NCBI GenBank assembly: GCA_050633305.1
Contig: JBOEGF010000013.1
Coordinates: 250,588-314,587 of the forward strand
Length of the DNA: 64,000 bases
Origin: Nannocystales bacterium
GTDB taxonomy: Bacteria; Myxococcota_A; Polyangia; Nannocystales; Nannocystaceae
Direction: 5' to 3'
The position numbers and the translations under genes were made by a program. The notes under the pieces are model-generated. The model worked only from the letters and a program-made list of their open reading frames with translations. It was not told where the DNA came from and ran no database searches. Position 1 is the first letter of the stretch. Each line of letters starts with the position of its first letter. Positions 7,058 through 40,460 of the stretch are shown piece by piece.

Positions 7058-8018
7058 AATCACGCTGAGCCGGCGGGCGCTTCTTGTTCTCGTTTCTGTT
7101 GCCTCCGCAGTCGCATGCAAACCGTTTCATCCCATGAAGGAATCCCCGACTCTCTCCGCATCCCTTCCCTCTCGACTCCGTCGCGTTTCTCTTGGCCCAG
7201 TCGACATCGCGCTACGCTCGACGCCCGGCCAAGGTCTCGCGGTCCTGTATATCCATGGGTCCCTCGAAGACCATCGTGGCTGGCAGGCGACGATCGACGC
7301 GCTGCAACGCCGTCGCTCCTGTCATACCGTGGCATACGATCGGCGGGGCCACGGATGCAGTACAGACGTGTCTGGCCAGGGGACACTGAGCGCCGATGTC
7401 GACGATGCCGAGGCTCTCATTGCGCAGGAGTTGCAAGGCGTCGCGCATGTGATCGGCCATTCCTACGGGGCCACGGTCGCGATGGAGTTGGCACGCCGAT
7501 GCCCGACCCGCGTCGCGAGTCTCTTCCTCCACGAGCCCCCGCTGTTCGGACTGCTGCGCGATGACCCGGACCTCTTCCCCTTGCTGGTCGAAGCGAAAGC
7601 CGGAATGTCGGACGCGATGTCCCTCATTCGTGCCGGAGAGGTCGAGCTTGGCGTCGAAGCCTTCATCGACCGGGTTGCGTTTGGTCCCGGTACGTGGAGG
7701 AACGGAATGGACACCGAAACTCGGGGACGGATGCTGTGCCATGCCGATACCTGGCTCGATCAAGCTCGAGATCCTCAGCGGCTGTCGATCAGCCTCGAAG
7801 GGCTTCGCACGCTGGTGAATCGCGCGACCCTGAGCACAGGGAGCCGGAGCCTCCCGACGTTCGACGCGGTCTCGAAGAGGGTCCTCGAGGCGTTCCCACA
7901 GTTGCGGCGGGTCGTCGTTGATGGTGGTGGCCACGACGCGCCGGCGACACATCCCGAGGTCTTTGCCGATCTCGTCGACGCACACCTTGGGCGGACCCCC
8001 AAGCCCCTCCCGAGCTAA
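7047..8018 (+). CDS. Alpha/beta hydrolase, possible Tat-lipoprotein
   Basis: IHGS, YDRRGHG, nucleophile elbow GHSYG, catalytic His in GGGH. N-terminus SRRALL...AVAC. Alternative start at 7134. Confidence 0.9.
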   Translation: MDAEITLSRRALLVLVSVASAVACKPFHPMKESPTLSASLPSRLRRVSLGPVDIALRSTPGQGLAVLYIHGSLEDHRGWQATIDALQRRRSCHTVAYDRRGHGCSTDVSGQGTLSADVDDAEALIAQELQGVAHVIGHSYGATVAMELARRCPTRVASLFLHEPPLFGLLRDDPDLFPLLVEAKAGMSDAMSLIRAGEVELGVEAFIDRVAFGPGTWRNGMDTETRGRMLCHADTWLDQARDPQRLSISLEGLRTLVNRATLSTGSRSLPTFDAVSKRVLEAFPQLRRVVVDGGGHDAPATHPEVFADLVDAHLGRTPKPLPS

Positions 8019-8150
8019 GGCAACGTGGAGGCCGTTGACAACTGCACCGCCGTTGCAGGCGGTTGGTACTACGACGACCCGATCTCCCGCGCAGATCATC
8101 CTGTGTCCACAAACCTGTGCGCGCTTCGAGGGCGTCGACGAGGCGAGTCG
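8019..8150 (+). pseudogene. Relic C-terminus of a myxobacterial vWA-type lipoprotein
   Basis: GNVEAVDNCTAVAGGWYYDDP, then after a frameshift PAQIILCPQTCARF. No N-terminal part. Boundaries approximate. Confidence 0.5.
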
Positions 8151-9383
8151 CTACGGCGGGTCCGCGTCGGCGGACGAATCCTCGGGGCTGGGCCCGACCG
8201 CCCCTTCAACCGTGGACGCAGAGGGGTCGCCCTCCTCGATGCGCACCCGGTCGATCGCGTCGGTGCGGAGGATGGACTCCGGAGGAACACCTTTGGGAAG
8301 GCGAACCTTGGCCAGCACCTTGCGACGTGGTGAGGGCGGTGCGACCTCGGGCTCGGAGCTGGAACCCAACAGGACCGACACCCAGTGAAGCTCCTCGCTG
8401 CGCTCCAACACCAGCCGGACCACGATGGTCAGCGGCACGGAGAGAAGCCCGCCCATCGGTCCCCAGACCCACAGCCAGAACGCCAGCGAGACGAACACGA
8501 CCAGCGGGGAGATGCCGAGGCGGCGGCCCATGAGCTGAGGCTCGATGATGCTGCCGAAGACGGTGTTGATCACGACGTAGCCGAACCCGACCAACGCGGC
8601 GACACCGATGCCAAGGTCGGGCTGAATCATCGCGGTGATGACGGCGGGAATGGAGGCGATGATCGATCCGACGGTCGGGATGAAGTTGAGCAGGAAGGCG
8701 ACCGTCCCCCACAACAACGGGAAGTCGACACCCAGCGCCCAGAGCAAGAGGGTGGCGGCGGCCCCCGTGACGAGCGAGACGACGGTCTTGATCGCCAGGT
8801 AGCGCTGGATCTCGAGCAGCATCGACTTCCATTGACCCAGATCGTCATCGGGGTCGGAGATCGCGATACGGATCTTCTTGGGGAACGTCGTCGCCTCGAG
8901 CAGCACGAACATCATCGTGAGCAGCACGAGCGCCGTGTTGGAGGCGGCCCCCACGAGTCCTCCGAGGAAGTTCATCGACAGCTCGAGGAACCGCTCGGGG
9001 TGCAGAACCGTGGAGATCTGCGAAGACTCGATCGGGACGCCGTGGGAGCGGGACCAGGCGAGGACCGAGGTTGTGCGTTCTGCCATGGCCGAGCGGTAGC
9101 CCGGAAGGGCTTCTTCGTAGCCCGCGAACGCGGTCGTGAGTAGCGCTCCGAAGCCGACGAGCGCTGCGAACACGAAGGCCAGCGCGATGGTGACAGCGAC
9201 CGGGGCAGGCAGGCGTCGCTCTTCGAGCCAGAGCACAACCGGAGCCACGAGCACCGACAGCAAGACGGCCAAGAGGAATGGCGGCAAGAGCGTATCGGCC
9301 TGGCGCAAGCCCGCGACGATGATCACCAGCGCGGCGATCGTCACGAGCGACTGCGAGCCGAAGCCCCGGGACGAGGTGCTCAT
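8151..9383 (-). CDS. AI-2E (PerM/TqsA-like) family transporter
   Basis: IQRYLAIKTVVS, LLNFIPTVGSIIA, IEPQLMGRRLGISPLVVFVSLAFWLWVWGPMGGLLSVPLT. Confidence 0.93.
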   Translation of the reverse strand: MSTSSRGFGSQSLVTIAALVIIVAGLRQADTLLPPFLLAVLLSVLVAPVVLWLEERRLPAPVAVTIALAFVFAALVGFGALLTTAFAGYEEALPGYRSAMAERTTSVLAWSRSHGVPIESSQISTVLHPERFLELSMNFLGGLVGAASNTALVLLTMMFVLLEATTFPKKIRIAISDPDDDLGQWKSMLLEIQRYLAIKTVVSLVTGAAATLLLWALGVDFPLLWGTVAFLLNFIPTVGSIIASIPAVITAMIQPDLGIGVAALVGFGYVVINTVFGSIIEPQLMGRRLGISPLVVFVSLAFWLWVWGPMGGLLSVPLTIVVRLVLERSEELHWVSVLLGSSSEPEVAPPSPRRKVLAKVRLPKGVPPESILRTDAIDRVRIEEGDPSASTVEGAVGPSPEDSSADADPP

Positions 9384-9421
9384 GGGCCGGGCGAGTATAG
9401 CCCGTTGTCGAGCTCGTGCCC

Positions 9422-10633
9422 TCAGCCCATCGAACAGCCTGGCTCGAGCTCGACACCCCACAGGCAGAGCCCGGGGAACAGACTGTCATCGCAGAACATG
9501 CCGTTCGGGCAGGTCTGGCCGTCCGCGCAAGACAGCAGGCACGTGTTCCCATCGCCCAGGTCATCGCGACAAACAACCTCGGAGTCGCCTGTGGCTGGCA
9601 CCGGACAATCTGCGGTGGAGTCGCAAGTCTCGGCGCAGAAGCACAGCTCGAGGCAGTCGTTGCCGCCGCCAAACGCTCCTGGACACGCGTCAACCTGGGA
9701 GGAGCACCAGTCGTAGTTTGGCTCAGCATCCTCGGGAGGGCACTGGAATGGGTCGGGCGCAGACTCCACCCCGCACACCGAGAGGCCCTCGGGGGGTTCG
9801 CCACACGAACCCAGACAGGTCTGTTCTCCGACCGAACACGGATGGGCCGCGTCGCAGAGGTTCGTGCAACACGAGTCGGTCTCACAGCCCGGCCCGTAGA
9901 CGTCGGCCGGAACGCACGACAGACCCGAACCGCAGGCGAAGGAGCATTCCTCGCCTTCGGACGCTGGGAGGTCACCCCCGCTCTGGCACACCGAGCCGCT
10001 GGGGCCCGTTTGGCAGACCTCCGACGGGTCCGGGCAACTCGGCTCGAACGGATCGCAAGTCGGCAGGCAGCCCAATGGACCGTCTCCGCCACCGACACAA
10101 ACACTTCCTTCGCCGCACGTCTTCTGGTCGCCGCAGAACGGAATGCAATAGCCGGATGCCGCGTCGGGTCCGGGAGTCCAACAGAACGACTGCTCGCCGC
10201 AGTTGTCGAACCCCAGAGCATCGCCGTAGAGACACGGCTCGCCGTCTGCAACGGGCTCGCTGTCCACAGGGACGCACACGGTGCCTTCGGTCACCGGCCA
10301 CACCGAGGTGTCACCGCTCCAGTTGTGCGTGCACTTGTAGCAATCTGGGCAGTCCTGCTGCGTGGTCAAACAGTTCCATACCTCGGGGTTGTCCAGGGGG
10401 GGCGGGTCGTCACAACTCGCGCCTGTGCTCGATGATGTTGTGGCGGGCTCCAGCGGTCCGTCGGTCGTGGGCTCACTCGTCGAACTCGAACTCGCGCCCG
10501 GTATCGCGGTGCCGCCGGACGTCGGGTCGGTGTCACCCGTCGAGGCCGCTTCGGTGCCGCCCATCTCGGCGGCGGCTCCACAGCCGACGAGACACCACAC
10601 GAAAACAGCAATTCCTCTCCTCGGCACCGTCAC
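9422..10633 (-). CDS. Cys-rich myxobacterial lipoprotein
   Basis: Lipobox CLVGC, Ser/Thr linker, numerous CxxxC modules. Start estimated at GTG 10633. Confidence 0.8.
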   Translation of the reverse strand: MTVPRRGIAVFVWCLVGCGAAAEMGGTEAASTGDTDPTSGGTAIPGASSSSTSEPTTDGPLEPATTSSSTGASCDDPPPLDNPEVWNCLTTQQDCPDCYKCTHNWSGDTSVWPVTEGTVCVPVDSEPVADGEPCLYGDALGFDNCGEQSFCWTPGPDAASGYCIPFCGDQKTCGEGSVCVGGGDGPLGCLPTCDPFEPSCPDPSEVCQTGPSGSVCQSGGDLPASEGEECSFACGSGLSCVPADVYGPGCETDSCCTNLCDAAHPCSVGEQTCLGSCGEPPEGLSVCGVESAPDPFQCPPEDAEPNYDWCSSQVDACPGAFGGGNDCLELCFCAETCDSTADCPVPATGDSEVVCRDDLGDGNTCLLSCADGQTCPNGMFCDDSLFPGLCLWGVELEPGCSMG

Positions 10634-23080: not shown

Positions 23081-24526
23081 ATGCCTACGCGGGTGTCCGA
23101 CGTCGCTCCTTCGGAAACACCTTCCATCTTTCGCCGTGTCGTCGGCTTCGCAACGCCGGTCGCCTTCGGCGTCGTGGCGTTTGTGATGATGCAGCGAGCA
23201 CGAGAGGAGCCGCCACGGCGCCCGCCTTCGGAGCAGGGCAAGGCCGTCCGAACCGCCGGGGTGATCGAGGCTGAGGCCATCCCTCGCGCGGTTGGCTATG
23301 GCGTGGTCCGCTCCTCCCGAGAATGGAGCCTTGTGGCCGAGGTGTCCGGTCGTGTTGTCGAGCTCAATGACAAGCTCGAGGACGGCCGCATCATTCGCGA
23401 AGGGGAGCGACTCATCAAGATCGATCCGGCAGGCTTCGAGCTGAGCGCTTCGCAGCAAAAGGCCACGGTCAGCAATGTAAAGGCACAACTCAGCGAACTC
23501 GCCGTTCGGGAGAAGAACACCAAGGCCAGTCTCGCGATCGCCAAGCGGTCTCTCGAGCTGTCGGAGAAGGAGCTCGCGAGGGTCAAGAAGCTCGAGAGCA
23601 GCGGCACAGCTTCGTCTTCGGAAGTCGATTCGGCCGAAGTCTCGGTGCTCACGCAACGTCAGTCGGTCCAGTCGTACAAGTCGACGCTCGCTCAGATCCC
23701 GGCCCAGCGCCGCGCCTACAAAGCCCAGATCTCGCAGTACGAAGCCGGGGTGAAGACAGCCGAGCTCGACGTCGCACGGACCGAGATCTTCGCGCCATTC
23801 GATGTCCGCATCCGCTCCGCGGACGTCGAGCTCAGCGAGCTGGTCACCGTGGGCGCCAAACTTGCCGAAGGAGACGGCATCGCGCTTGCCGAGGTCCCTG
23901 CCCAGTTCTCGATCGGCTCACTGATGCCCCTCATCGCGCCGCCCAAGGATGTGGACGAGCCTCCCGCAGCAGCCGAGGACACACCCGAGACACCTTCGGA
24001 TGAGGCGCTCTCTGCCCGTGCCCTCGCCCGTCGGTCGGCGCAGGCCGGACTCAAGGCCACCGTCACGTTGGAGAGCGGGGCCGTGGTGACGAGCTGGGAG
24101 GCGGCGTTCGACCGCTTTGCCAATGTCGAGAGCGCCACCCGAACCGTCTCGGTCGTGGTCGCTGTCGATGACCCCTTCGGCAAGGCGTCCCGCGGCCGAC
24201 GGCCACCGCTGGTCTCGGGAATGTACGTGGAGGTCGAACTCGAGGGCTTACCCCGCCCCGGCTGTCTCGCGGTGCCCCGCGGCGCGCTGCGGTCAGACAC
24301 GCTGCACGTTGTCGATGCCCAACAACGGCTCGCCATTCGCCCCGTCGAGGTCGCCTTCGTCCAGGAGACCTACGCCTGTATCGACAGCGGCGTCAAAGCC
24401 GGTGACCAAGTCGTGCTCACGGATGTGGTCCCCGCAATCGAAGGAACCCTCCTCGAGCCGCGGGTGGATGAGCGCGCTGTGGCCCAACTGGCCGAGGCCG
24501 TCGACGGAGAGGCCCAAGCCCAATGA
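23081..24526 (+). CDS. RND efflux periplasmic adaptor (MFP)
   Basis: N-terminal TM, AEVSGRVV, coiled hairpin, TEIFAPFD, GMYVEVEL, VPRGAL. Confidence 0.93.
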   Translation: MPTRVSDVAPSETPSIFRRVVGFATPVAFGVVAFVMMQRAREEPPRRPPSEQGKAVRTAGVIEAEAIPRAVGYGVVRSSREWSLVAEVSGRVVELNDKLEDGRIIREGERLIKIDPAGFELSASQQKATVSNVKAQLSELAVREKNTKASLAIAKRSLELSEKELARVKKLESSGTASSSEVDSAEVSVLTQRQSVQSYKSTLAQIPAQRRAYKAQISQYEAGVKTAELDVARTEIFAPFDVRIRSADVELSELVTVGAKLAEGDGIALAEVPAQFSIGSLMPLIAPPKDVDEPPAAAEDTPETPSDEALSARALARRSAQAGLKATVTLESGAVVTSWEAAFDRFANVESATRTVSVVVAVDDPFGKASRGRRPPLVSGMYVEVELEGLPRPGCLAVPRGALRSDTLHVVDAQQRLAIRPVEVAFVQETYACIDSGVKAGDQVVLTDVVPAIEGTLLEPRVDERAVAQLAEAVDGEAQAQ

Positions 24527-27500
24527 TCGGCTACCTCGCTCGGCACCCGACCGCCGCCAACCTCCTGATGATCACCCTGCTCCTGCTCGGTGTTCTAGGG
24601 CTCACCTCACTCAAACGAGAGACCTTTCCCGAGTTCACCCCCTCGGTGGTCACCATCACCGTCGCCTACCCCGGCGCGTCCGCCGAGGATGTCGACGAGG
24701 CCATCGTGGCGCGGGTCGAAGACGCGGTCGACGGCATCGAGTACCTCGACCGAATGACCTCCAAGGCCCGCCAAGGTGTGGGCGTGGTGACGCTGGAGAT
24801 GGAAGACGGCGGAGCGCTGGACGCGTTCAAGTCCGACATCGACAGCGCTGTCGATGCGATCAACGACTTCCCCAACGAAGCCGAGGACCCCGTGGTCGCC
24901 GAGGTAACCGGCATGAGCGCGGTCGCCTCGATCGCGGTCCGTGGCCCGATGAGCGTCCCCGACCTCGAGCGCTACTGCGAAGAACTCAAGGACGAACTCC
25001 AACGCTACGAAGAGGTCTCGCAGATCGAGATCGCCGGGTTCTCCACGCCGCAGCTTCAGGTACGGGTCAAGCAATCGGTTGCTTCGTCCTACGGACTGAG
25101 CGTCGGCGATCTCGCTGACCTCATCGCCGCGCAGAGCCTTGACCTCCCGGTCGGCTCGCTCGAGACGCGGGGCGGAGAGATCCTGGTGCGGTTCGCGGAA
25201 CAGCGACGAAGCATCGAGGAGTTCGCCCGACTTCCGGTGGTGGGCAGCGCACTCGGAGGCGAGGTGCCCCTGGGAGACCTCGCAGACATCGAGTACACGT
25301 TCGAGGACGCCGAGGAGCAGACCCTGTTCAACGGCAAGCGTGCCGGCCTTCTGCGGGTGAGCAAGACGTCCAGCCAGGACGCACTCGAGATCTTCTCCGC
25401 GATGGAGGAGTTCGTGGAGCTCAAGTCCGCGACGGCCCCACCGGGCGTCGAGCTTGTCATCACCGACGATGCCGCGACCCCCATCGAGCAGCGACTCGAG
25501 CTGCTGACGAACAACGGCTTTCAGGGGTTGGTGCTCGTCTTCGTCACCCTGTGGCTGTTCTTCAACACCCGCCTGGCCCTGTGGGTGGCCGCCGGCCTGC
25601 CCGTGTCGTTCATGGGCGGCCTGTGGATCATGTCGCTGATCGGCTACACGCTGAACATGATGACCATGATGGCCCTGCTGCTCGCACTGGGGCTGTTGAT
25701 GGACGACGGCATCGTGTTGGCCGACAACATCGCGGCGCACCTGCGGCGCGGCAAGAGCTCCTATCGGGCCGCAATCGACGGCGTCACCGAGGTCTGGCCG
25801 GGCATCGTGTCGTCATTCCTGACGACGGTCTGCGTCTTCACGCCGCTGTCCATGCTCGATGGGCAGATCGGCCGGGTCCTTCTTGTGATTCCCGTCGTAC
25901 TCATCGCCGTCCTCAGCATCAGCCTGATCGAGGCCTTCGGCATCCTGCCCAACCACATCGCGCACTCGTTGCATGGCCGCGACATCGACAAACGCTCTCG
26001 CGCGCGAGCGTGGTTCGACAGTGGCTTCGAGCGCTTCCGGGAACAAATCGTGGGCCGTGCGTCGGACTGGGCGATCCACCACCGCTACATCACCGTCGGA
26101 TCTGCGATCGCGTTCTTCGTCATCTCGATCGGGCTCATGGCGGGCGGCATCCTCAAGTTCGAAGGGTTCCCCGATACCGATGGTGACACCGCCGAGTTCC
26201 GGCTCCGGATGCCCGCCGGAACCCCTCTGGAGGTCACCCAGGCTGAAGTGGCGCGGGTCGTCTCGGGGCTCCAGCAGATCGACGCCGAGTTGACGCCGCA
26301 GCAACCCGAGGCCGCACCGCTCATCGAGAACATCGTCGTTCGGATGAACTACAACCCCGACTCGCCGGACTCGGGGCCACACATCGCGACGGTCAAGGCG
26401 GATCTTCTCAGTGTCGAGGTCCGCAGCACCACCCTCGACCAGCTCAAGACCGCCTGGCGCGAAACCGTGGGGCCGCTGTCCGACGCCACGTCCGCCAGCT
26501 TTGCCAGCGCCGCGATGGGCCCGGGCGGAGCCGCGATCGAGTTGCGGGTTCAGGGCAGCGACCTCGACCGCATGTCGGAAGCCGCGGTGGAGATCGAACG
26601 CTGGCTCGGCGGGTTCGAAGGCGTGTTCGACCTCGGAACCGACCTTCAACCCGGGACCCCGCAGGTGCGGGTGCGCCTGCGCTCGGGTGCCTTGGGCAGC
26701 TCCGCGCAGTCCGTACAAGTCGCGCAGCAGCTCCGCTCCGCGTTCTCCGGCGACCGAGCCCAAGACGTCCGCATCGGCGCGCAGGACTACGAGGTCACGG
26801 TTCAGCTGGCAGATTCGGGTCGCGACACGCTCTCGGACCTCGAGTATTTCGAGCTCCAGCTGGGGGGCGAGCGCGTCCCCCTGGGCACCGTCGCCGACGT
26901 CTCCGCGGACAACACATTTGCCGCGATCGCCCGCGTCAACGGCACGCGCACCGTCACGCTGACCGGTGACATCGATGCAGAGGTCGCGAACTCGGCCGAA
27001 CTCATGCAGCGCTTCAACAACGAGCTGTTGCCTGAACTCGCACAGAAGTACCCCGGGCTCCGGTTCGAGGTCGGAGGCAGCACCGAGGAGTCTGGGAAGA
27101 CCGCCCAATCCATGCTCACCGCGTTCGGCATCGGGCTGTTTGGGGTCTTCTTTCTGTTGAGTTTCCAGTTCCGATCCTACGTCGAACCACTGGTCGTCAT
27201 GCTCGCCATCCCGCTCGCACTGACCGGCGTCATGTGGGGCAACCTGTTCATGGGAGACCCGCTCACCCTGCCGGGCATCCTCGGGTTCATCTCCCTGGCC
27301 GGCGTCGTGGTCAACGACTCCATCTTGCTGATGGTCTTCATCAAGGCCGGGCTTCGCGAGGGGCTCGATCCCACGGCCGCGGCACAAGGAGCCTCTCGGA
27401 GCCGCTTTCGGGCGATCCTGCTGACCTCGGCCACCACGGTCGCAGGACTGGTGCCCCTGATGTTCGAGCGAAGCCAGCAGGCGCAAACACTCATCCCGGT

Positions 27501-27645
27501 GGCCACCAGCATCGTGTTCGGGATGCTCGCTTCGACCGTGCTTCTGCTGCTCGTCTTGCCCGCGATGTACGCAATGCTGGGAGACTTCGGTCTCACCGCC
27601 AAGCCTGGCGCAACCGTAGGCGGCGCCGACGATGAGGAGTCTTGA
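24523..27645 (+). CDS. RND efflux permease (AcrB/AcrD/AcrF family)
   Basis: 1040 aa; AANLLM, YPGASAEDV, GLLMDDGIV, GVVVNDSI, SRFRAILLTS. Confidence 0.96.
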   Translation: MIGYLARHPTAANLLMITLLLLGVLGLTSLKRETFPEFTPSVVTITVAYPGASAEDVDEAIVARVEDAVDGIEYLDRMTSKARQGVGVVTLEMEDGGALDAFKSDIDSAVDAINDFPNEAEDPVVAEVTGMSAVASIAVRGPMSVPDLERYCEELKDELQRYEEVSQIEIAGFSTPQLQVRVKQSVASSYGLSVGDLADLIAAQSLDLPVGSLETRGGEILVRFAEQRRSIEEFARLPVVGSALGGEVPLGDLADIEYTFEDAEEQTLFNGKRAGLLRVSKTSSQDALEIFSAMEEFVELKSATAPPGVELVITDDAATPIEQRLELLTNNGFQGLVLVFVTLWLFFNTRLALWVAAGLPVSFMGGLWIMSLIGYTLNMMTMMALLLALGLLMDDGIVLADNIAAHLRRGKSSYRAAIDGVTEVWPGIVSSFLTTVCVFTPLSMLDGQIGRVLLVIPVVLIAVLSISLIEAFGILPNHIAHSLHGRDIDKRSRARAWFDSGFERFREQIVGRASDWAIHHRYITVGSAIAFFVISIGLMAGGILKFEGFPDTDGDTAEFRLRMPAGTPLEVTQAEVARVVSGLQQIDAELTPQQPEAAPLIENIVVRMNYNPDSPDSGPHIATVKADLLSVEVRSTTLDQLKTAWRETVGPLSDATSASFASAAMGPGGAAIELRVQGSDLDRMSEAAVEIERWLGGFEGVFDLGTDLQPGTPQVRVRLRSGALGSSAQSVQVAQQLRSAFSGDRAQDVRIGAQDYEVTVQLADSGRDTLSDLEYFELQLGGERVPLGTVADVSADNTFAAIARVNGTRTVTLTGDIDAEVANSAELMQRFNNELLPELAQKYPGLRFEVGGSTEESGKTAQSMLTAFGIGLFGVFFLLSFQFRSYVEPLVVMLAIPLALTGVMWGNLFMGDPLTLPGILGFISLAGVVVNDSILLMVFIKAGLREGLDPTAAAQGASRSRFRAILLTSATTVAGLVPLMFERSQQAQTLIPVATSIVFGMLASTVLLLLVLPAMYAMLGDFGLTAKPGATVGGADDEES

Positions 27646-28943
27646 TGAGAAGATGGGCGCGCCCCACGAGGCTCGGCCTAGCGCTGTTGCTCAGCCTCGG
27701 GGCGTGCGGGACCACTGAGGGCCGAGAGCCGCCCCCGAGCGCGGCAAAACCAGATCCCGCGCCCACTCTCGAAGGCACGTGGCGAGCCACCCTGACCTCT
27801 CCAGGCGGCGAGCTCCCATTCGAGCTCCACGTTCATGACCGGGAGGGAACGCTGCAGGCTACGGCGCACAACGGCACCGAGACCGTAGAGTTCACATCCG
27901 TGTCTCTGGGCGGCGACACGGCCGTCCTTCGCATCGACGGATACGATTCCGAAGTCCGTGCCACGCTCAAGGATGATGGGCAGAGCCTCTGGGGCGTGTG
28001 GACAAAGACCACGCCCGATGGTCCGTCTTCGATGCCATTCGCAGCCACCCGCGGGGCGCAACCTCGCTTCTCCAGCGAAACTCCCGCACCGAGCTACGAC
28101 GTCCCAAAATCGGTCGACGGCGAGTGGTCCGTCCGCTTCCGCGAAGAGGACGACAGCACCTTCGTAGGCCATGCGATCCTCACGTCGAGCGACGGAGCAC
28201 TACATGGGACCATCCTGACCGATACGGGTGACTACCGGTACCTCGAGGGACGCTACGCAAACGGTACCGTGGAGCTCTCGTGCTTTGACGGGGGGCATGC
28301 GTTCTTGTTTCGAGCGACGGTTGCCGAGGATGGATCGCTCGAAGGCAACTTCTGGTCCCGCGCGAGCTACCACGCGACGTGGACCGCAACACCGATGAGT
28401 CCGGGTCAGGCCAGCCCGCTCGCGGACCCCTTCACCGCGGTCACCCTGTCGTCTCGAGAGACCGAGGGCCGATTCCGCTTCGCGTTCCCGGACAGCTCAG
28501 GCGCCACCGTGACCGACGAGGACCCTCGTTTTCGCGACAAGGTGGTCCTCATCGACATCTTCGGAACCTGGTGCCCCAACTGCAACGATTACGCGCCGGT
28601 CCTCGCCCGCTGGCATGACACCTATGGCCCCCGTGGACTCGAGATCGTCGGCCTCGCCTTCGAGTTCACCGGGGACGTCAAGCGCGACCGAGCCCAGCTT
28701 GCGACCTACGCCCAAACCCACGGCATCACCTTCCCCCTACTGCTCGCCGGTACCAGCGACAAAGGAGACGCAGCCGAGCTGCTGCCCTCGATCGACGAAG
28801 TGAAATCGTATCCGACCACCATCCTGGTCGGACGGGACGGCCGCGTGCACAAGATCCACAGCGGCTTCGCCGGACCGGCGACAGGGAAACACCACGAGCG
28901 ACTCCTCAACACACTCCAGACGGAGATCGAGTCCCTGCTGTAG
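27642..28943 (+). CDS. TlpA-family thiol-disulfide oxidoreductase lipoprotein with N-terminal beta domains
   Basis: Lipobox LGAC; TDTGDYRYLEG; FGTWCPNC; YPTTILVGRDG; overlaps the RND stop. Confidence 0.9.
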   Translation: MMRRWARPTRLGLALLLSLGACGTTEGREPPPSAAKPDPAPTLEGTWRATLTSPGGELPFELHVHDREGTLQATAHNGTETVEFTSVSLGGDTAVLRIDGYDSEVRATLKDDGQSLWGVWTKTTPDGPSSMPFAATRGAQPRFSSETPAPSYDVPKSVDGEWSVRFREEDDSTFVGHAILTSSDGALHGTILTDTGDYRYLEGRYANGTVELSCFDGGHAFLFRATVAEDGSLEGNFWSRASYHATWTATPMSPGQASPLADPFTAVTLSSRETEGRFRFAFPDSSGATVTDEDPRFRDKVVLIDIFGTWCPNCNDYAPVLARWHDTYGPRGLEIVGLAFEFTGDVKRDRAQLATYAQTHGITFPLLLAGTSDKGDAAELLPSIDEVKSYPTTILVGRDGRVHKIHSGFAGPATGKHHERLLNTLQTEIESLL

Positions 28944-31629: not shown

Positions 31630-33714
31630 TCAATCGGAACGCTTCCCGCGGGGCGTACGAGAGCCGCCCGCCTCTGCCCCGCGGTACTGCTGATACCAAG
31701 GCATGTTGCGAATTTCCGCCAAGTAGGCCTGGTACTGGGTTTCGTAGGCTTCTTTGCCGCGCGTGTCGTTGAACAACAGCCGGGTGCCTCGGTAAGCCCG
31801 TGCGATGTCGACGACCGCGATCACCAACAGCTGAGGGATCCCCGAACGCAACCCGAGCCACGCTCCGCTCGTCATCCACGACTCGTCGCCAAGAGCCAAG
31901 ACCACCGCGTTGAGTACGACACAGGCCGCTGTCGAGAACGCGATGTGCTGGTAAACGCTCGTCATCTCACCGAAGGAGAGCGTGTCATAGAGCAGCGCGT
32001 TGACCAGCTTGCGAACGACCGGGATCACCAGGACCAGCGCCAATCCCACGAGCGATAGCCAGCCCAGGGCGAGGCCGAGCAACAAGAAGTTGACGGCGAA
32101 CAAGGGGACCCATGCCATCTTGGCGATCAGGCCGGGCGCGAACATGTTGGTCCAGCGCCGGCAGTACTCCAGATACTTGTCGTTCTCGTCGTTGAGTTCG
32201 GGATACCGCGCGGGAATTCCCGGTCCCGTGAGGTATGCCGAGAACTCCCCGGCCAAGAGCGAAGACCACATCGTGCGGGGCTTGCCCAACGCGTGACTGA
32301 TCTCCTCGTTGGTCATTCCCGTGAACTGGGTGTGCTCGAGCCCCTCGTACTCCTGCCCGGACTCCAAGTAGTTGTACTTCCACGACGCCATCCGGGCGTC
32401 GAACTCGCGAACGAACTTCGTGTGAAACGAGCCGTCATCGATGAGGCGATGGATGAACTCGCACTGGATCTCCGACGTGCCCGCAAACGCCCCGGTGGTA
32501 GGCCGCTCGACGCCTACGAAGTAGACGTTGGGTCGCTTCGCGTTCCACAGCCCGTAGAGGCAGTCGGTGTAGTTGTATGTCCAGGCCTCTCCGTTGGAGC
32601 CCAGGATCTCGACCGGCGCCGGACGTGCAATGCCAGCCTTGATCCGTCGGTCGACCTTGACCGGCTCGCCGTCGATCTCGCACACATCGTCTCGAACCCA
32701 GTCCACCCGCTTGGGGTGCACCACCCTCAAGTCTCCCCGCTTCATGAAGAAGTACGGGTCGTTGAGGAGCATGCGGTGCGAGAGCATCTGCTCCCGATAC
32801 TCGCCGTCGAAGTGTGCGAAGAACGAGTCGATGGACCAGTATTTGACGGGTAGCCCGAAGCCCGCGTTGACCCCGGTCCGAAGCAAGTAGCTACGCCACG
32901 CCGAAGGGAGGTCCTTTCGGTAGAAGTCCTCCGGAGTCATGAGTTCATCCAGACCGGACTTCTTGCGGAACAGCCGAGAGAGCCAAGTGTCACCGTAGGG
33001 CGAGACGGCGGTACACAGAGCGCTGCGGTACGAACGCTCGTGGTTGTACTTGGCCAGGTACTGGTACGGCTCGAACATGTCCAAAGGCGCCCACGCCTTG
33101 GATTGCCCCTCCATGTAGAACACCTTGTCGAGGTTCTGGAAGTGCTCGGTGCAGAAGATGACCTTGTTGCCACCGAGCATCAGTCGCGACATGTACATGT
33201 TGCTGGTGTCGCCGTAGCCGTCGATGACCACCGTCTTGTTCTGGAGGTGGAGCGTCTCCTGCAGCGTTTCACAGATGCCGGGGCCATCCACGGTCTGCGC
33301 CGCCGTGACCACCAGATGACGGCAGCGCACAGAACCCGAGGTTTCCCCCTCCAAACCCACGTCGAACGACCCGTCCGCCCGCTCTTGGTACTTGACCGCC
33401 CGCGACCGCACCGTCCGAGCGCGGATCTCGGAGCAGACATCGGCCTGCAGCCGCTTGTAGTAGTCGGTCGCCGTGAAGAAGTGAAAATCGAGGTCGAAGT
33501 CCCACCAGGAAAAGCCCGCAACCGCGTTGGAAGACAGGAGGTCAAAGTCGTCTTCGTGTTCCGCCAAACGACTCCACACCCCGAAGTCACGCTCCGAGAT
33601 CACGACGAACGACTTCTTCGAGCGCACGAGCAGCCGCAGCAGCGCCAGCGAGGACACGCCCAAGCCCACGACGCAGACGTCGACGGTTTTTCCCGTCCAG
33701 TCGTGGTCGTTCAC
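31630..33714 (-). CDS. AetF-like single-component flavin-dependent halogenase/monooxygenase with membrane insertion
   Basis: Collinear with the AetF sequence as I recall it: VCVVGLGVSS, VWSRL, NKTVVIDGYGDTSN, LDMFE, VKYWSID, LLND, NVYFVGVERPTTG, SEIQCEFIHRLI, FNDTRGKEAY. GTGA overlap with the upstream gene. Confidence 0.85.
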   Translation of the reverse strand: MNDHDWTGKTVDVCVVGLGVSSLALLRLLVRSKKSFVVISERDFGVWSRLAEHEDDFDLLSSNAVAGFSWWDFDLDFHFFTATDYYKRLQADVCSEIRARTVRSRAVKYQERADGSFDVGLEGETSGSVRCRHLVVTAAQTVDGPGICETLQETLHLQNKTVVIDGYGDTSNMYMSRLMLGGNKVIFCTEHFQNLDKVFYMEGQSKAWAPLDMFEPYQYLAKYNHERSYRSALCTAVSPYGDTWLSRLFRKKSGLDELMTPEDFYRKDLPSAWRSYLLRTGVNAGFGLPVKYWSIDSFFAHFDGEYREQMLSHRMLLNDPYFFMKRGDLRVVHPKRVDWVRDDVCEIDGEPVKVDRRIKAGIARPAPVEILGSNGEAWTYNYTDCLYGLWNAKRPNVYFVGVERPTTGAFAGTSEIQCEFIHRLIDDGSFHTKFVREFDARMASWKYNYLESGQEYEGLEHTQFTGMTNEEISHALGKPRTMWSSLLAGEFSAYLTGPGIPARYPELNDENDKYLEYCRRWTNMFAPGLIAKMAWVPLFAVNFLLLGLALGWLSLVGLALVLVIPVVRKLVNALLYDTLSFGEMTSVYQHIAFSTAACVVLNAVVLALGDESWMTSGAWLGLRSGIPQLLVIAVVDIARAYRGTRLLFNDTRGKEAYETQYQAYLAEIRNMPWYQQYRGAEAGGSRTPRGKRSD

Positions 33715-35273
33715 TGTGCCGCCCCCTCCTGGGGCTGGGTAGGCTTCGCCCGCATCCACTCCGCCAACCGACGAACGTAGTCGGTATTGCCACGCCAGTC
33801 GTTGTCGAGATCGTCAGGCAGGAAGAAGCGGTCGACGAGTTCCCCGGACTTGTAGTGTCGGATGATCGGGTGGATGTAGAAGTCCTCAGCCACCCCCACG
33901 CCGCGAGGCATCGCGAACGGGTCCATGTACTCGTCGGACTTCCCGTACTCCAACGTCAGCATGTACAGCTCGGATTCCTCGGACAGCAGCCTTTCGGTGA
34001 CGTAGTCCACTGGAACATCACGCAGCAGCTGGAACGCCCCGGGGATGTCTTCGGCTGCTGGTACCACGACATCGGCGAGGAAGCCCGGCTGCAACATCAA
34101 GGCGGCCGATGTACTCATCCGCTCGATGAGCGCGGAGGCCAGCCCCTCTTCGAGGGCGGACGGCAGGCGCTCGCGCTCGACCCAGGGCCCCTTTCCGTCG
34201 CGGCGGCTCACAATGGAGACCAGGGACTCGATGTTGTGTCGGAACCCGTGGATGAACGCGGACATCGTCTTCCGATAGTCGCGGGACTGCATCAGCGTCC
34301 CGATGAAGAACATGTTGGGGACGTTCACCGACTCCCAGTCGCAGGTCATCAGCGGCAGCCGCCCGCACTCTCGGCGCAGTGGTGCGCACGACACATCGAA
34401 GATGCCCAGGTCGGAACAGAAGCCCGTGCACAGCAACACCCGGTCGCAGGGGTACGAGAGCAGCTGCTTCCGAGACTCGAACCAGACGTCGACGACCAAC
34501 TCCCCATCGACCTTGCGGACCGCCCGAAGTTCACCGTCGAGGATGTTGTTCTGCGCCTTGAGCTGGTAGGTGTCCAAGAAGTTGTTGTTGACCGCCCGCA
34601 GGTGCCCCACGAAGTGGCTTGCCCAGGCGAGTTTCACGGTGCTGCGCCCGCACACCCAGATCTTGCGCGTGGTCTCGATCAGGGCATCCGCGGTTTCGAA
34701 CGCGGAGTTCCCCTTGCCCGCGATGAACACCCGTTGGTCGACGAAGTCGTTGGGGTCGACGGAGAACTCGTCGTAGTTCTCGCAGAGTTCCGCCCCCTCG
34801 ATGTCGGGTCGATGGGCGTTGGGAATGCCCGTTGCGACGAACAGCCGCTCGCACGTGAATACGCGGCCATCCTCCAGAACGACCGAGAACTCGCCTTGCG
34901 CCTTGGCGACCTTGGTGACGGCGCAACCGTAGGAGATCACCAGCTTGTAATGTGCTGCGAACGCCTCGAGGTAGGCCACCAAGGACGAAGCCGTGGGGAA
35001 GTAGTCCTTGGAGAACTCCCGGAACTGCAGTGCTTCGTCGTCGCAGACCAGAGCGTTCCAGTCGTAGCGGCGCCGTGACTCGAGGTCCGGGTACCCGGTG
35101 TGGACTTTGTTGATCGACAGCAGCCGGTCGTGCCGTGGGTAGCTGTGGAAGAAGGTCCCCGCACTCTCACCGCGCTCCAGCACGAGGTATTCCTCGCCAG
35201 ACTTGGCGAGCAGGTGGGCGAGCTGCAGCCCCGCAGGACCGGCGCCGATGATCAGATTGCGAACGTGTGTCAT
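33711..35273 (-). CDS. FOXRED2-like FAD/NAD(P)H-dependent oxidoreductase (copy 2)
   Basis: GAGPAG, LLSINK, RYDWNAL, YFP, ATG, GKGNSAFETA, HLRAVNNNFLDTYQLK, CTGF, SAFIHGFR. Confidence 0.9.
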   Translation of the reverse strand: MTHVRNLIIGAGPAGLQLAHLLAKSGEEYLVLERGESAGTFFHSYPRHDRLLSINKVHTGYPDLESRRRYDWNALVCDDEALQFREFSKDYFPTASSLVAYLEAFAAHYKLVISYGCAVTKVAKAQGEFSVVLEDGRVFTCERLFVATGIPNAHRPDIEGAELCENYDEFSVDPNDFVDQRVFIAGKGNSAFETADALIETTRKIWVCGRSTVKLAWASHFVGHLRAVNNNFLDTYQLKAQNNILDGELRAVRKVDGELVVDVWFESRKQLLSYPCDRVLLCTGFCSDLGIFDVSCAPLRRECGRLPLMTCDWESVNVPNMFFIGTLMQSRDYRKTMSAFIHGFRHNIESLVSIVSRRDGKGPWVERERLPSALEEGLASALIERMSTSAALMLQPGFLADVVVPAAEDIPGAFQLLRDVPVDYVTERLLSEESELYMLTLEYGKSDEYMDPFAMPRGVGVAEDFYIHPIIRHYKSGELVDRFFLPDDLDNDWRGNTDYVRRLAEWMRAKPTQPQEGAAQ

Positions 35274-36928
35274 TTGCCCATCCCCTGGCTGGCATCGACC
35301 AGCCGCATGTCTTTGTCACGGACGATCAACCGCCGTACGGGGTCCGCCTTCGCCTCCAACGTGTCTCCCCGCATCGAACGCTCGAAATACTCCGCGCACG
35401 GTCCGAGATACTCGCGACCACTCCAGTCGGCGAGAAAGTCCTCGAGCACGTGAAACTCCGACCGCCGCGCGCCGTCCGTGCCAGAGCGCATCTCGACGAC
35501 GGGGTGGATGTTGGTACTCGACGCACCGTCGTAGACGTTGGTGCTCCGGTCGTAGTCGTGGGGGTTCGGCGGGTTGTCGCCGAGTCGGAACATCAGAATG
35601 TAGAAGTCCCGCCCCTCGCTGATCTTCGCGCCATGCTCCACCAGGTAGTCGTAGGGATGGGAGAAGATGTACCGCGCGGTGCCCCCGGGCTCTTTGGGAA
35701 GCACGATCATGTCCGCGAGGAAGCCGACCTGCTGCCAAAGCGAGGACACGCGGTTCATCCGGGCGAGGAATGCTTCTGCGAGCGCGCCTCCTGTGGGCTC
35801 GACCTCGATCGAGGGTAGCGGGTCTTGGTGGTAGCGCTCCGCCAGGAGTCCGGCGAGTGACTCGGTGTTGTAGCGGAACCCATGGATGAATGCGGACTGA
35901 GCCCGCTTGTGGTCGAGGAACTGGGTCACCGTCCCCGCGAAGAAGAGACCCGGGACGTTGCTCGACTCGAAGCCAGTGCTCATCGTGGGCAGGCGTCCGC
36001 ACTCGGAGAGCTCGGGCAAGCAGGTCTCGTCGAAGATCGACCGGTCGAAGCGAAAGCCGGTACAGCGCAACACCGCGTCGTACTCGATCTGCTCGACTTC
36101 GTTGGCTGCGTGAATCGAGGAGAAGCTGACACGGATCTTCCCCGTATCGGTGCGCTCCATCCCCTGGACGTTGCCGTCGATGATCCCGTTCTGAGACTTG
36201 AGGTGGTACGTGTCGAGAAAGTTGTTGTTGACCGCCCGCAGGTGCCCCACGAACCGTGAGTCCCACGCGAGGGTGACCGGGTGCGGGCTGAGCATGTGGA
36301 TGACGGCGGCCGTGGGAATGAGGTTGTCGGCGGTTTCGAAGGCCGAGTTTCCCTTGCCCAGGATGAGCACGTTCTTGTTGTGGAACTCCGCCGGGTCGAC
36401 GGACATCGTCTCGTAGCCCTCGGCGAGTTCGATGCCAGGAACGTCCGGGATCACCGGGGTTCCGACACCCGTCGCAACAACGAGACACCGAGCCCGGTAT
36501 CGCTGCCCGCCCTCGCATTCGGCTTCGAAAGACCCCTGGCCATCTTCGCGACGCACCGAGGTCACTCGGCGCTCGAGGTGGACCTGAAGCTCGTTCGCCC
36601 GGACGAATCGCGCAAGGTAGTCGACCAAGACGTCGGCCGAGGGAAAGTACTCTTGGGTCAGCTCCGTCATGCGCCCCGACGCGTCCTCGCTGATCAGCGA
36701 GTTCCAGTCGTGGCGGAGGTTGAATTCCGGGTCGTCCCGGCCCGTTGCCGACTTGTTGATCGACAACAGCGTCCGGTGTCGTGGATACCGTGAGAAGAAC
36801 GCTCCCACGTGGTCGGCCCCGTCCAGGACTACGTAGCGACGCCCTGCGCGTTGAAGGAAGTACGCGAGCTGCAGCCCGGCAGGTCCCGCTCCAAGGATGA
36901 GGTAGTCGGTTTCGAACGTCGTCGCCAT
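35270..36928 (-). CDS. FOXRED2-like FAD/NAD(P)H-dependent oxidoreductase (copy 1)
   Basis: GAGPAG, RHRTLLSINK, EFNLRHDWNSL, GKGNSAFETA, HLRAVNNNFLDTYHLK, CTGF, SAFIHGFRY; ATGA overlap with copy 2. Confidence 0.9.
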   Translation of the reverse strand: MATTFETDYLILGAGPAGLQLAYFLQRAGRRYVVLDGADHVGAFFSRYPRHRTLLSINKSATGRDDPEFNLRHDWNSLISEDASGRMTELTQEYFPSADVLVDYLARFVRANELQVHLERRVTSVRREDGQGSFEAECEGGQRYRARCLVVATGVGTPVIPDVPGIELAEGYETMSVDPAEFHNKNVLILGKGNSAFETADNLIPTAAVIHMLSPHPVTLAWDSRFVGHLRAVNNNFLDTYHLKSQNGIIDGNVQGMERTDTGKIRVSFSSIHAANEVEQIEYDAVLRCTGFRFDRSIFDETCLPELSECGRLPTMSTGFESSNVPGLFFAGTVTQFLDHKRAQSAFIHGFRYNTESLAGLLAERYHQDPLPSIEVEPTGGALAEAFLARMNRVSSLWQQVGFLADMIVLPKEPGGTARYIFSHPYDYLVEHGAKISEGRDFYILMFRLGDNPPNPHDYDRSTNVYDGASSTNIHPVVEMRSGTDGARRSEFHVLEDFLADWSGREYLGPCAEYFERSMRGDTLEAKADPVRRLIVRDKDMRLVDASQGMGK

Positions 36929-36953: not shown

Positions 36954-37658
36954 CTACTCCGACAGGAAATGTGTCCCGCTCTCCAGCGCCGCGTGGGTCC
37001 GCGAGAGCATCTCGTCGCAGAAGCTCTCGGTTCGGTCGAAGATGCCGTGGACGAGTGCTTCTGCTCGAGGGCGCATCGACTCGGGCAGGACGCAGGAGCG
37101 AATGTCCTCAACCTCGCTGCCGATCGCATGACCGGTCTCTCGCTCGAGGTGGTGCTGTGAGAAGTAGACCAGTCGCTCTCGCTGCGGATGCGAGCTGGCA
37201 GCACGGGCGGTCGCAGAAAGCCACACGTTGCCTTGGGCTTCGAGCGCTTCGATGATCACCAAGCGAAGCTCGGCGCTCGCATCTCGGGCGGCCGCGATGA
37301 CGTAGTGCCCCAGCTCGCGCGCATGCTTGCCCTCGTCGCTCCACAGGAACCGAAGAACATCCGTAAACCGGCATTCTCGGTCGAATCCTAGGACTTTGAG
37401 GTCGTGGAGGAACCAGGCAAAGTGCGTCTGATCCTCCGCCGCATGCTCGTTGATCATTTCCTGTTGCGGACTGTCTGGTTCGTCCTCGTGCAGGAAGTCC
37501 CGGTTGAATTCCCCGAAGGTCAGGACAAAGTGGCTGCCGAACGGCGCATAGGCGAGCCGTTGCTCTGCAGGTACGGTCTCGTCACGAAGAAACCGGATGA
37601 AGGGATGGCGTTCGTAGGCGCTACGCCTGCGCTCGATGATTTCGAAGATCGCCTGCAA
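36954..37658 (-). CDS. AetD-like heme-oxygenase-like diiron oxidase (nitrile-synthase homolog)
   Basis: TTG start after GGGAG. FLRDETV, INEHAAEDQTHFAWFLHDL, GFD, RFLWSD, VIIEALE, HLERETGHAIG match recalled AetD motifs and give a full His/Glu/Asp diiron ligand set. Confidence 0.88.
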   Translation of the reverse strand: MQAIFEIIERRRSAYERHPFIRFLRDETVPAEQRLAYAPFGSHFVLTFGEFNRDFLHEDEPDSPQQEMINEHAAEDQTHFAWFLHDLKVLGFDRECRFTDVLRFLWSDEGKHARELGHYVIAAARDASAELRLVIIEALEAQGNVWLSATARAASSHPQRERLVYFSQHHLERETGHAIGSEVEDIRSCVLPESMRPRAEALVHGIFDRTESFCDEMLSRTHAALESGTHFLSE

Positions 37659-39335: not shown

Positions 39336-40460
39336 GTGAGTCTAGGACCTGGATGGTTCGGCGCTGTTGCGGGGCTTGGTGTGCTCGTGCTGAGCGGTGC
39401 GGCGTGTTTCGTCACCAACCCCGCCGACCCCGAAGAAGAGTCGGACGGAGGGACCGAGCAGCCCAGCAGTTCCAGCAGCGGCAGTTCCGGAGGCGGCCCT
39501 TCGGGGGCGACGTCGTCGACAACCAGCGGCCTTCCCGACGGCGAAGTCACCAGCGGCACAACCAACGCGTGCACTCAGGGCGCGATGTGTACCGCCGTCG
39601 CGCCCGACGAATGGGAGGGGCCGGCGGTGGTGGTGCTCCGCACCCCCGATAGCGATCCATCTTGCCCCTCGGGCACCGACCTCGGCTTCCAGATGACCAC
39701 CGACGTCTCCGCAGATCCGGCGGCCTGCGAATGCTCGTGCGGTCCACCAGAGTCGGTCACCTGCGATGGCAGAGTCCGGATTCACGACGACGACGAGTGC
39801 CCGACCGTCGGCGCGATGGTTGGTGGGGTCGGTGCTACATGCGCTCCTTTTCCTCCCGCATTCTCTGCGACGCACCACTGGAGCCTCGAGACATGGGTGG
39901 ACGCAGGCGGCTGCGAGCCGACGACAGATACGACCTTGCCCGAACCCACGGCTGGAGCGCGGGTCGACGTGTGCGTGGCCGCCCCCGGAGCCGGCGCGTG
40001 CGCTTCGGGCGTCTGCCTGCCTGAGCCTGATGCGGAGGCACGACACTGTATTTGGGCACCTGGCGATCTGCCATGTCCCGACGGTCCCGACGGTCCCGAC
40101 GGTCCCGACGGTCCCGACGGTCCCGACGGTCCCGACGGTCCCGAGTTTTCGGAGAAGTTGCTCGGCAACAACGGCTTCGACGACACGCGGGGGTGCCTCG
40201 ACTGCATGTGCGCCCCCCCTCACGAGTCTTGCCGCGCGACGGCCGAGCTTTTCCCGTCGGAAGACTGCGCAATCGGTGACCAAAGCGGGGTGATCACCTG
40301 GGAAGGCGCGGGCTCCTGCGTGCCCGCGATGGAGGAGGTCGGCTCCGTCCAGCTCGACTTCGACCCAGACCCTCAGGCGGCGTGTGCACCGTCCGAGCCA
40401 CAGCCGGTCGGAGGCCTCGTTCCCCTCGAGCAGACGACCTTCTGTTGTTCACCAACCTAA
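39336..40460 (+). CDS. Cys-rich lipoprotein with (PDG)7 insertion
   Basis: Lipobox GAAC, Ser/Gly linker, CECSC, DDTRGC, ends TTFCC. Start estimated at GTG 39336. Confidence 0.8.
   Translation: MSLGPGWFGAVAGLGVLVLSGAACFVTNPADPEEESDGGTEQPSSSSSGSSGGGPSGATSSTTSGLPDGEVTSGTTNACTQGAMCTAVAPDEWEGPAVVVLRTPDSDPSCPSGTDLGFQMTTDVSADPAACECSCGPPESVTCDGRVRIHDDDECPTVGAMVGGVGATCAPFPPAFSATHHWSLETWVDAGGCEPTTDTTLPEPTAGARVDVCVAAPGAGACASGVCLPEPDAEARHCIWAPGDLPCPDGPDGPDGPDGPDGPDGPDGPEFSEKLLGNNGFDDTRGCLDCMCAPPHESCRATAELFPSEDCAIGDQSGVITWEGAGSCVPAMEEVGSVQLDFDPDPQAACAPSEPQPVGGLVPLEQTTFCCSPT
40075..40144 (+). repeat. Perfect 9-bp tandem repeat (CCCGACGGT)x7 plus partial units
   Basis: Read directly; seven identical units from 40077 to 40139. 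Confidence 0.97.

Follow-up and report, generated by a model that had tools for sequence, protein, structure and literature searches.

Four genes lie together on the reverse strand of the window (the whole stretch of 64,000 nucleotides that was analysed). They form a compact cassette of 6 kb, in which the genes of a diiron oxidase and two flavoproteins stand upstream of the gene of a 694-aa protein, joined by 4-nt overlaps and one 25-nt gap. The features, in the direction of transcription, are the following.

36954..37658 (-), AetD/SktA-like heme-oxygenase-like diiron oxidase, about 234 aa; a TTG start is suggested by the homologs, and the frame stays open to 37787
35270..36928 (-), FOXRED2-like FAD/NAD(P) oxidoreductase 1 (Pyr_redox_3), 552 aa, 42% identical to its neighbour
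33711..35273 (-), FOXRED2-like FAD/NAD(P) oxidoreductase 2 (Pyr_redox_3), 520 aa; 4-nt overlap of its start with the stop of the gene upstream
31630..33714 (-), membrane-type flavoprotein of the AetF family, 694 aa; its start again overlaps the preceding stop by 4 nt
33649..33666 (-), FAD-binding motif GLGVSS, aa 17-22 (AetF 8-GFGFSA-13)
33295..33306 (-), TAAQ (aa 137-140) in place of AetF ATGF; AetF R132 not kept
33202..33219 (-), NAD(P)H-binding motif GYGDTS, aa 166-171 (AetF 154-TMGDSA-159)
33070..33072 (-), Glu215, equivalent to AetF E200 by alignment; Glu in 52/54 thinned rows
32842..32844 (-), Lys291, equivalent to AetF K258 by alignment; Lys in 54/54 thinned rows
31789..32142 (-), predicted membrane segment, aa 525-642 (hydropathy, charge distribution, AlphaFold2)
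within it (-), predicted H1, aa 528-550 (end of a 40-residue helix, 511-550)
within it (-), predicted H2, aa 552-567, and basic/amphipathic linker, aa 568-588
within it (-), predicted H3, aa 589-608, acidic loop, aa 609-618, and H4, aa 619-642
31744..31773 (-), FNDTRGKEAY, F648 being equivalent to the pocket residue F524 of AetF; the chain re-enters the catalytic core here after the membrane segment

The gene of the 694-aa protein begins with a GTG codon and has AGGAGG upstream. The AetF chains were the only strong sequence matches of its product in the PDB (E 1.1e-34), with 25% identity over 542 columns, and AetF, the single-component Trp 5,7-dibrominase of Aetokthonos hydrillicola (PDB 8CJD-8CJG, 8JZ2-6), is among its closest known counterparts. 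Pfam and NCBIfam gave no family assignment for this protein or for the diiron oxidase, and they overlook the membrane-type members of the family in general. Matches to the 694-aa protein were found neither in plasmids nor in the viral contigs searched. No RNA run was listed as containing the region; short contigs of one DNA run, which may be that of the source sample, match parts of it with no indels.

The protein shares with the AetF/JamD family the class B FMO fold with the AetF-specific insertion and C-terminal elements, and the deviant FAD (GxGxSA) and NADP (xxGDSA) motifs in one chain. The first-pass annotation had recognized the catalytic Lys and Glu of AetF at 32842-32844 and 33070-33072, and in the sequence alignment K291 and E215 indeed fall on AetF K258 and E200. 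In AetF, K258 is essential for halogenation and E200 is the proposed general base, as described in PMC10306068 and PMC9772203. Across both forms of the family (see below) K258, W260 and R370 were invariant (54/54 thinned rows) and E200 was kept in 52 of the 54. According to PMC10306068, a K258-type Lys is absent in ancestral FMOs and in ZvPNO and present in the halogenase Bmp5, which shares it with AetF together with the YRLxG motif. However, an FMO-like outgroup protein (L109) also has Lys at this position, hence this residue alone is not diagnostic. The replacement of the ATG flavin motif by TAAQ, already seen in the first pass, was confirmed as part of a wider change, since the deep branch that holds the 694-aa protein has lost the TG/AF-x-R motif in full, with the residue of AetF R132; a Gly-to-Ala change in the ATG motif is itself common (16/46 long-form rows). 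The sequence 469-YRLxG-473, common to AetF, Bmp5 and AncFMO2, reads ARYPE in the 694-aa protein and its closest relatives; YRxxG is kept in most other family members and lost in this clade.

The long hydrophobic stretch before FNDTRGKEAY and the short C-terminal tail, both remarked on earlier, were found as described. The mean Kyte-Doolittle value of residues 525-640 (about 31790-32142) was 1.28, versus -0.51 for the rest of the protein. None of 5000 shuffles matched the observed best window of 45 or 116 residues, and 39 of 5000 matched that of 19 residues. The span equivalent to AetF G473 to N525 comprises 142 aa instead of 52, and the tail after the FND Asp 45 aa instead of 143; compared with AetF, the protein carries 90 extra hydrophobic residues and is devoid of the 100-residue tail. 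The suggested membrane anchoring was supported by four hydrophobic helices, a positive-inside charge pattern and an AlphaFold2 model with a pLDDT of 90.8, and the protein is predicted to be anchored in the inner membrane by these four helices. Mammalian and ancestral FMOs (class B2) possess a single TM helix and lack the catalytic Lys, whereas in the 694-aa protein another three helices come next and the FND motif brings the chain back into the core. It should be considered whether the segment anchors the protein in a re-entrant or monotopic manner, or forms a helical bundle buried in the protein, and is not a four-pass TM domain, since H2 has just 11-16 residues in the model, H4 is interrupted by Gly-Pro, and mammalian FMOs join one TM helix to monotopic ridges. 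This seems rather unlikely, because H1-H2 form a 40-residue stretch with a single charged residue, the four helices have a mean Kyte-Doolittle value of 1.4-2.2 across 12 homologs and their charge bias fits an in-out-in arrangement.

Word-based homolog searches, even with a wide alignment, recovered only 12 close relatives. A search of all representatives gave 84 matches, and a genome scan gave 86 relatives, 80 of which were kept (79 loci, AetF itself among them). The resulting alignment contained 124 near-full-length rows, with some proteins entered twice from different sources; it excluded duplicate loci, the outgroup, and any fragment or frameshifted copy shorter than 560-600 aa. Two forms were observed with no intermediate rows: a short form (19/124 rows; segment of 52-53 aa, tail of 110-143 aa) and a long form (105/124 rows; segment of 123-241 aa, tail of 23-68 aa). 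Thinning by core identity left 16 short and 90 long rows at 90%, 8 and 46 at 70%, and 1 and 30 at 50%; the queries were mostly of the long form, which may bias this ratio, and matching ran via the shared core. In the 70% thinned set, a window with a Kyte-Doolittle value of at least 1.6 was present in 45 of 46 long rows and in none of 8 short rows. The form with the membrane segment is the majority of the AetF family within this sample, and the first-pass notion of a special insertion in the 694-aa protein had to be abandoned (105/124 rows, or 46/54 after thinning, share the architecture). Long forms were found in Pseudomonadota, Myxococcota, Binatota, Bacteroidota, Chloroflexota and others, and in EukProt in the diplonemid Sulcionema specki (47% identical to the 694-aa protein) and the dinoflagellate Gymnodinium smaydae, although bacterial contamination of these transcriptomes is not excluded. 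Diplonemid and dinoflagellate transcriptome proteins (P0012 and P0041) lie in the deep branch, as do several single-gene contigs of 2.0-2.7 kb (within P0014-P0023) that could be eukaryotic transcripts.

In core-only trees (quick method) a 100% branch set the 8 soluble rows apart, and their group lay within the long forms. Outgroup and midpoint rooting agreed in placing the root between the branch of the 694-aa protein (13 rows) and the other 41, which puts this protein and the soluble AetF-type proteins on opposite sides of the deepest split. The outgroup L109 forms a long branch; its chain runs on into a pair of hydrophobic helices alignable with the family profile. A tree with all long forms as one clade was not rejected by the AU test (p 0.32), and in hhalign comparisons the membrane segments from different clades were not significantly similar to one another. 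The rooting thus favours, without proving it, the membrane segment as the older state, which soluble AetF/JamD-type proteins likely lost while gaining the long tail; the ancestral form is not proven because of the long-branch outgroup, the AU result and the clade segments that hhalign could not align. The homolog phylogeny proposed in the first-pass annotation therefore indicates that the insertion was probably framed backwards, although the reverse is compatible with the AU result. Permutation of the segment into the tail was unsupported, since hhalign detected no significant similarity between the membrane segments and the soluble-form tail. As a separate observation, L109 (L109:7416-9482) has Gln at the E200 position and its two hydrophobic helices at the C-terminus; it is possibly Bmp5-like and might link the FMOs to the AetF family.

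The tested enzymes identified in the set, AetF and MCE9613948.1 (= L043), are both of the soluble type; JamD and two of the three accessions of alkene/alkyne-halogenating homologs were not matched. JamD and the AetF homologs that halogenate alkenes and alkynes (MCE9613948 etc.) belong to the same family but are of the soluble type, with a 52-aa segment, on the other side of the deepest split. Two further soluble-type members (L026 and L027) sit behind acyl-AMP ligase, desaturase and ACP genes, an arrangement that we take to be that of jamABC. The literature searched, with the main AetF-homolog papers outside its reach, contained no mention of membrane-type AetF homologs or of a membrane-bound flavin-dependent halogenase, and the main text of the halogenase papers searched did not mention transmembrane segments. 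As far as could be checked, the membrane form is a common yet unstudied form of the AetF family.

In AetF, residues Q500, D516, S523 and K587 hold the amino and carboxyl groups of Trp (PMC10306068). In the 694-aa protein the first three align with apolar residues at the two ends of the membrane segment, and K587 has no counterpart because the tail is missing; the soluble character, short segment and long tail of AetF proper are likewise not found. Each of the four residues occurred in one of the 8 soluble rows, AetF itself, and since they are missing in the other seven they mark a specialisation of AetF. By alignment, their absence shows that Trp is not bound in the AetF manner and does not prove a lipophilic pocket. 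Of the remodelled, lipophilic pocket put forward initially, the loss of the polar binders stood, but as support for lipophilicity it is weakened by its occurrence in 7/8 soluble rows.

The operon with the diiron oxidase and the two FOXRED2-like flavoproteins, which was absent from the first-pass annotation, offers the best clue to the substrate. The four genes occurred together in 6/6 loci with DNA (the window, L099, L100, L101 with changed order, L154 and L155). For 7 of the 9 homologs P0003-P0011 the length of the longest contig equals that recorded for a close homolog of oxidoreductase 2, which is indirect evidence from partly the same loci. A homolog with 77% identity to the 694-aa protein is listed as coming from a Nannocystaceae MAG. 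The cassette was found in 4/72 genomes of the order, in three genera, and its GC content (62.5%) is below that of the genome (65.9%), a distribution consistent with patchy transfer. For the DJ-1 gene and two more genes of the flanks, the other loci gave no match, and these were rejected as parts of the system, as was the RND pump, which clusters only with two non-cassette loci. This pump, an RND efflux pair followed by a TlpA/AhpC-like lipoprotein (window 23081-28943), is not conserved beside other cassettes. A short tandem repeat encoding (GPD)n was also observed on the forward strand at about 39900-39970, in a Cys-rich myxobacterial-type protein.

The two Pyr_redox_3 flavoproteins are FOXRED2-like by language-model features (score 0.98). 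Among 10 other loci with such genes, two follow a beta-eliminating lyase, two flank NRPS genes, two flank P450s, one is near a canonical halogenase and one near a distant HDO; from these neighbours the flavoproteins look like tailoring enzymes. No cluster paper on bacterial FOXRED2-like flavoproteins was found in the literature searched. In L194:283-3351 and L195:335-3558 the lyase (tryptophanase/tyrosine phenol-lyase family) directly precedes the flavoprotein, a pair that is possibly an indole- or phenol-oxidising two-gene unit.

The oxidase of the cassette is an AetD homolog (E 3e-42) that keeps all the iron ligands (D76, H79, E140, H172, E176 and H179; 3-His/3-carboxylate) as well as F44, F48 and Y167. 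F48 is assigned to the substrate-triggered type in work on residue roles in AetD-type HDOs (PMC11611611). The cassette oxidase differs from AetD in W146, F80, F40 and T214. In all six cassettes I146 is replaced by W, W80 by F/Y and C40 by F/Y, with T214 present and F44 kept; these oxidases form their own clade, W146 being found in 6/6 cassettes and in 0/50 other homologs. In AetD, I146 clamps the indole (PMC10654658), and its replacement by W suggests that the substrate may not be Trp. S214 of AetD contacts the 7-Br and SktA has Phe at this position (PMC13108848), hence T214 would fit a pre-halogenated substrate. Elsewhere, an AetD-like oxidase was observed near Trp-halogenase-like, Trp dimethylallyltransferase-like and class I/II aminotransferase genes (L119:2558-10126), with a similar oxidase/aminotransferase set in L120, and AetD-like domains were fused to longer C-terminal parts in L121:8105-10099 (a polyketide cyclase/START domain), L122:9343-10839 and L190:4361-6043.

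The skt cluster of Nostoc punctiforme (SktA skatole synthase, SktB halogenase, SktC FMO) follows the same part logic, with an AetD-family oxidase, a halogenase and one or more flavin oxygenases; SktA converts Trp or 5-Br-Trp into skatole and cyanide, according to PMC11869266. The same source describes SktB as a canonical Trp halogenase, not homologous to AetF, and SktC, judged by eye, begins like a classical FMO, unlike the FOXRED2-type pair. The cassette oxidase falls in a clade separate from SktA (compared by eye and from published residue notes), with W146, F/Y80, F/Y40 and T214. Nor is the cassette an aet pathway, since no genome match to the tryptophanase AetE or to AetC was obtained at E 1e-10 (genome 92% complete) and the cassette contains no P450 or second halogenase. 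An AetA-like gene lies on another contig of the genome.

Taken together, the cassette likely makes a small halogenated compound from an amino acid. The reading that we prefer, and to which we would give about even chances, is that the membrane-anchored AetF-family halogenase acts on a neutral, membrane-partitioning product of the diiron oxidase of its own operon. The oxidase would first remove the side chain of an aromatic amino acid, either by SktA-type C-alpha/C-beta cleavage to a skatole- or cresol-like compound or by AetD-type formation of a nitrile, and the neutral product would partition into the membrane. By analogy with AetF, NAD(P)H would reduce the bound FAD, O2 would give the C4a-hydroperoxyflavin and halide would be converted into HOX, which would pass the lysine to reach a distant pocket. 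The anchored enzyme would thereby halogenate (brominate) the product through K291/E215, with a pocket floor, made up of the beginning of H1 and the residues preceding FND, that may face the bilayer and admit an apolar substrate. The two FOXRED2-like enzymes might oxygenate, oxidise or reduce the ring. Against this stand the opposite order of halogenase and oxidase in the aet and skt clusters, T214 of the oxidase and the loss of TG/AF-x-R in the deep branch and of YRxxG in the clade.

The order of steps might be the opposite, with the membrane-bound halogenase acting first on a free aromatic amino acid, held by other residues, and feeding the oxidase. The halogenase precedes the oxidase in both characterised clusters, aet and skt, and acts there on free Trp (PMC11869266), and T214 occurs in 6/6 cassettes, like the 7-Br-contacting S214 of AetD. 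However, AetD and SktA also turn over plain Trp, so the oxidase need not have a halogenated substrate; the four AetF amino-acid-binding positions lack polar residues, and a membrane anchor would have no obvious use for a soluble zwitterion. We regard this order as unlikely.

The protein might also be a membrane-bound class B flavin monooxygenase, halogenation having arisen only in the soluble AetF/JamD clade. The two tested members identified are both soluble and lie across the deepest split from the 694-aa protein, the nearest other folds are membrane FMOs, and the FMO-like outgroup keeps the Lys. This is distinctly improbable given that both forms keep K258, W260 and R370 without exception and E200 in nearly every row, and that the Lys is missing from ancestral FMOs and ZvPNO and present in Bmp5. 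Least probable of all is JamD-like halogenation of a membrane-borne alkene, alkyne or lipid, with an oxidase that makes a terminal alkene in the manner of UndA/BesC or is not the supplier: AetF homologs are reported to halogenate alkenes and alkynes, other membrane-type members lie in trans-AT-like PKS clusters (L020, L035, L042) or, in Parasphingorhabdus, alone among housekeeping genes, and the oxidase pocket is remodelled (W146), but F44, F48 and Y167 from the amino-acid site of AetD are still present in the oxidase, and gene calling yielded no acyl ligase, ACP or desaturase for the cassette.

AetF is widely used in biocatalysis and is regarded as an almost unique, soluble enzyme. A broader proposal, possible although doubtful, is that the AetF family consists mainly of integral-membrane halogenases (at least 5 bacterial phyla plus protist transcriptomes) that act on lipophilic substrates at the bilayer, the soluble AetF/JamD type being derived, and that the cassette encodes a new pathway, with a remodelled AetD-type oxidase cleaving a different aromatic amino acid from that of AetD and the membrane enzyme brominating the released volatile. 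If so, the tested members would be the exception, about 30 clusters at 50% core identity (30/31) would be unexplored halogenase candidates for apolar substrates, and the cassette would add a microbial source of small marine organobromines that has gone unrecognised and would give a function to the new AetD/SktA clade and to bacterial FOXRED2-like flavoproteins.

Other membrane-type members were observed in different surroundings. In Parasphingorhabdus/Sphingorhabdus (L050-L080 and L097, match at about 8001-10040) a member is kept in more than 20 genomes, flanked by guanylate kinase, AI-2E transporter and uvrA genes with no biosynthetic cluster, and may have a stand-alone, lipid-related role. 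Those inside Burkholderiales trans-AT-like PKS clusters (L020:7986-10040, L035:7941-10037 and L042:7998-10082) follow a small ACP-sized gene and a free KS, with an acyltransferase downstream in L020 and L035, and are candidate polyketide halogenases. Two divergently transcribed membrane-type paralogs (L034:4390-6405 and 7941-10016) were found in one Xanthobacteraceae locus.
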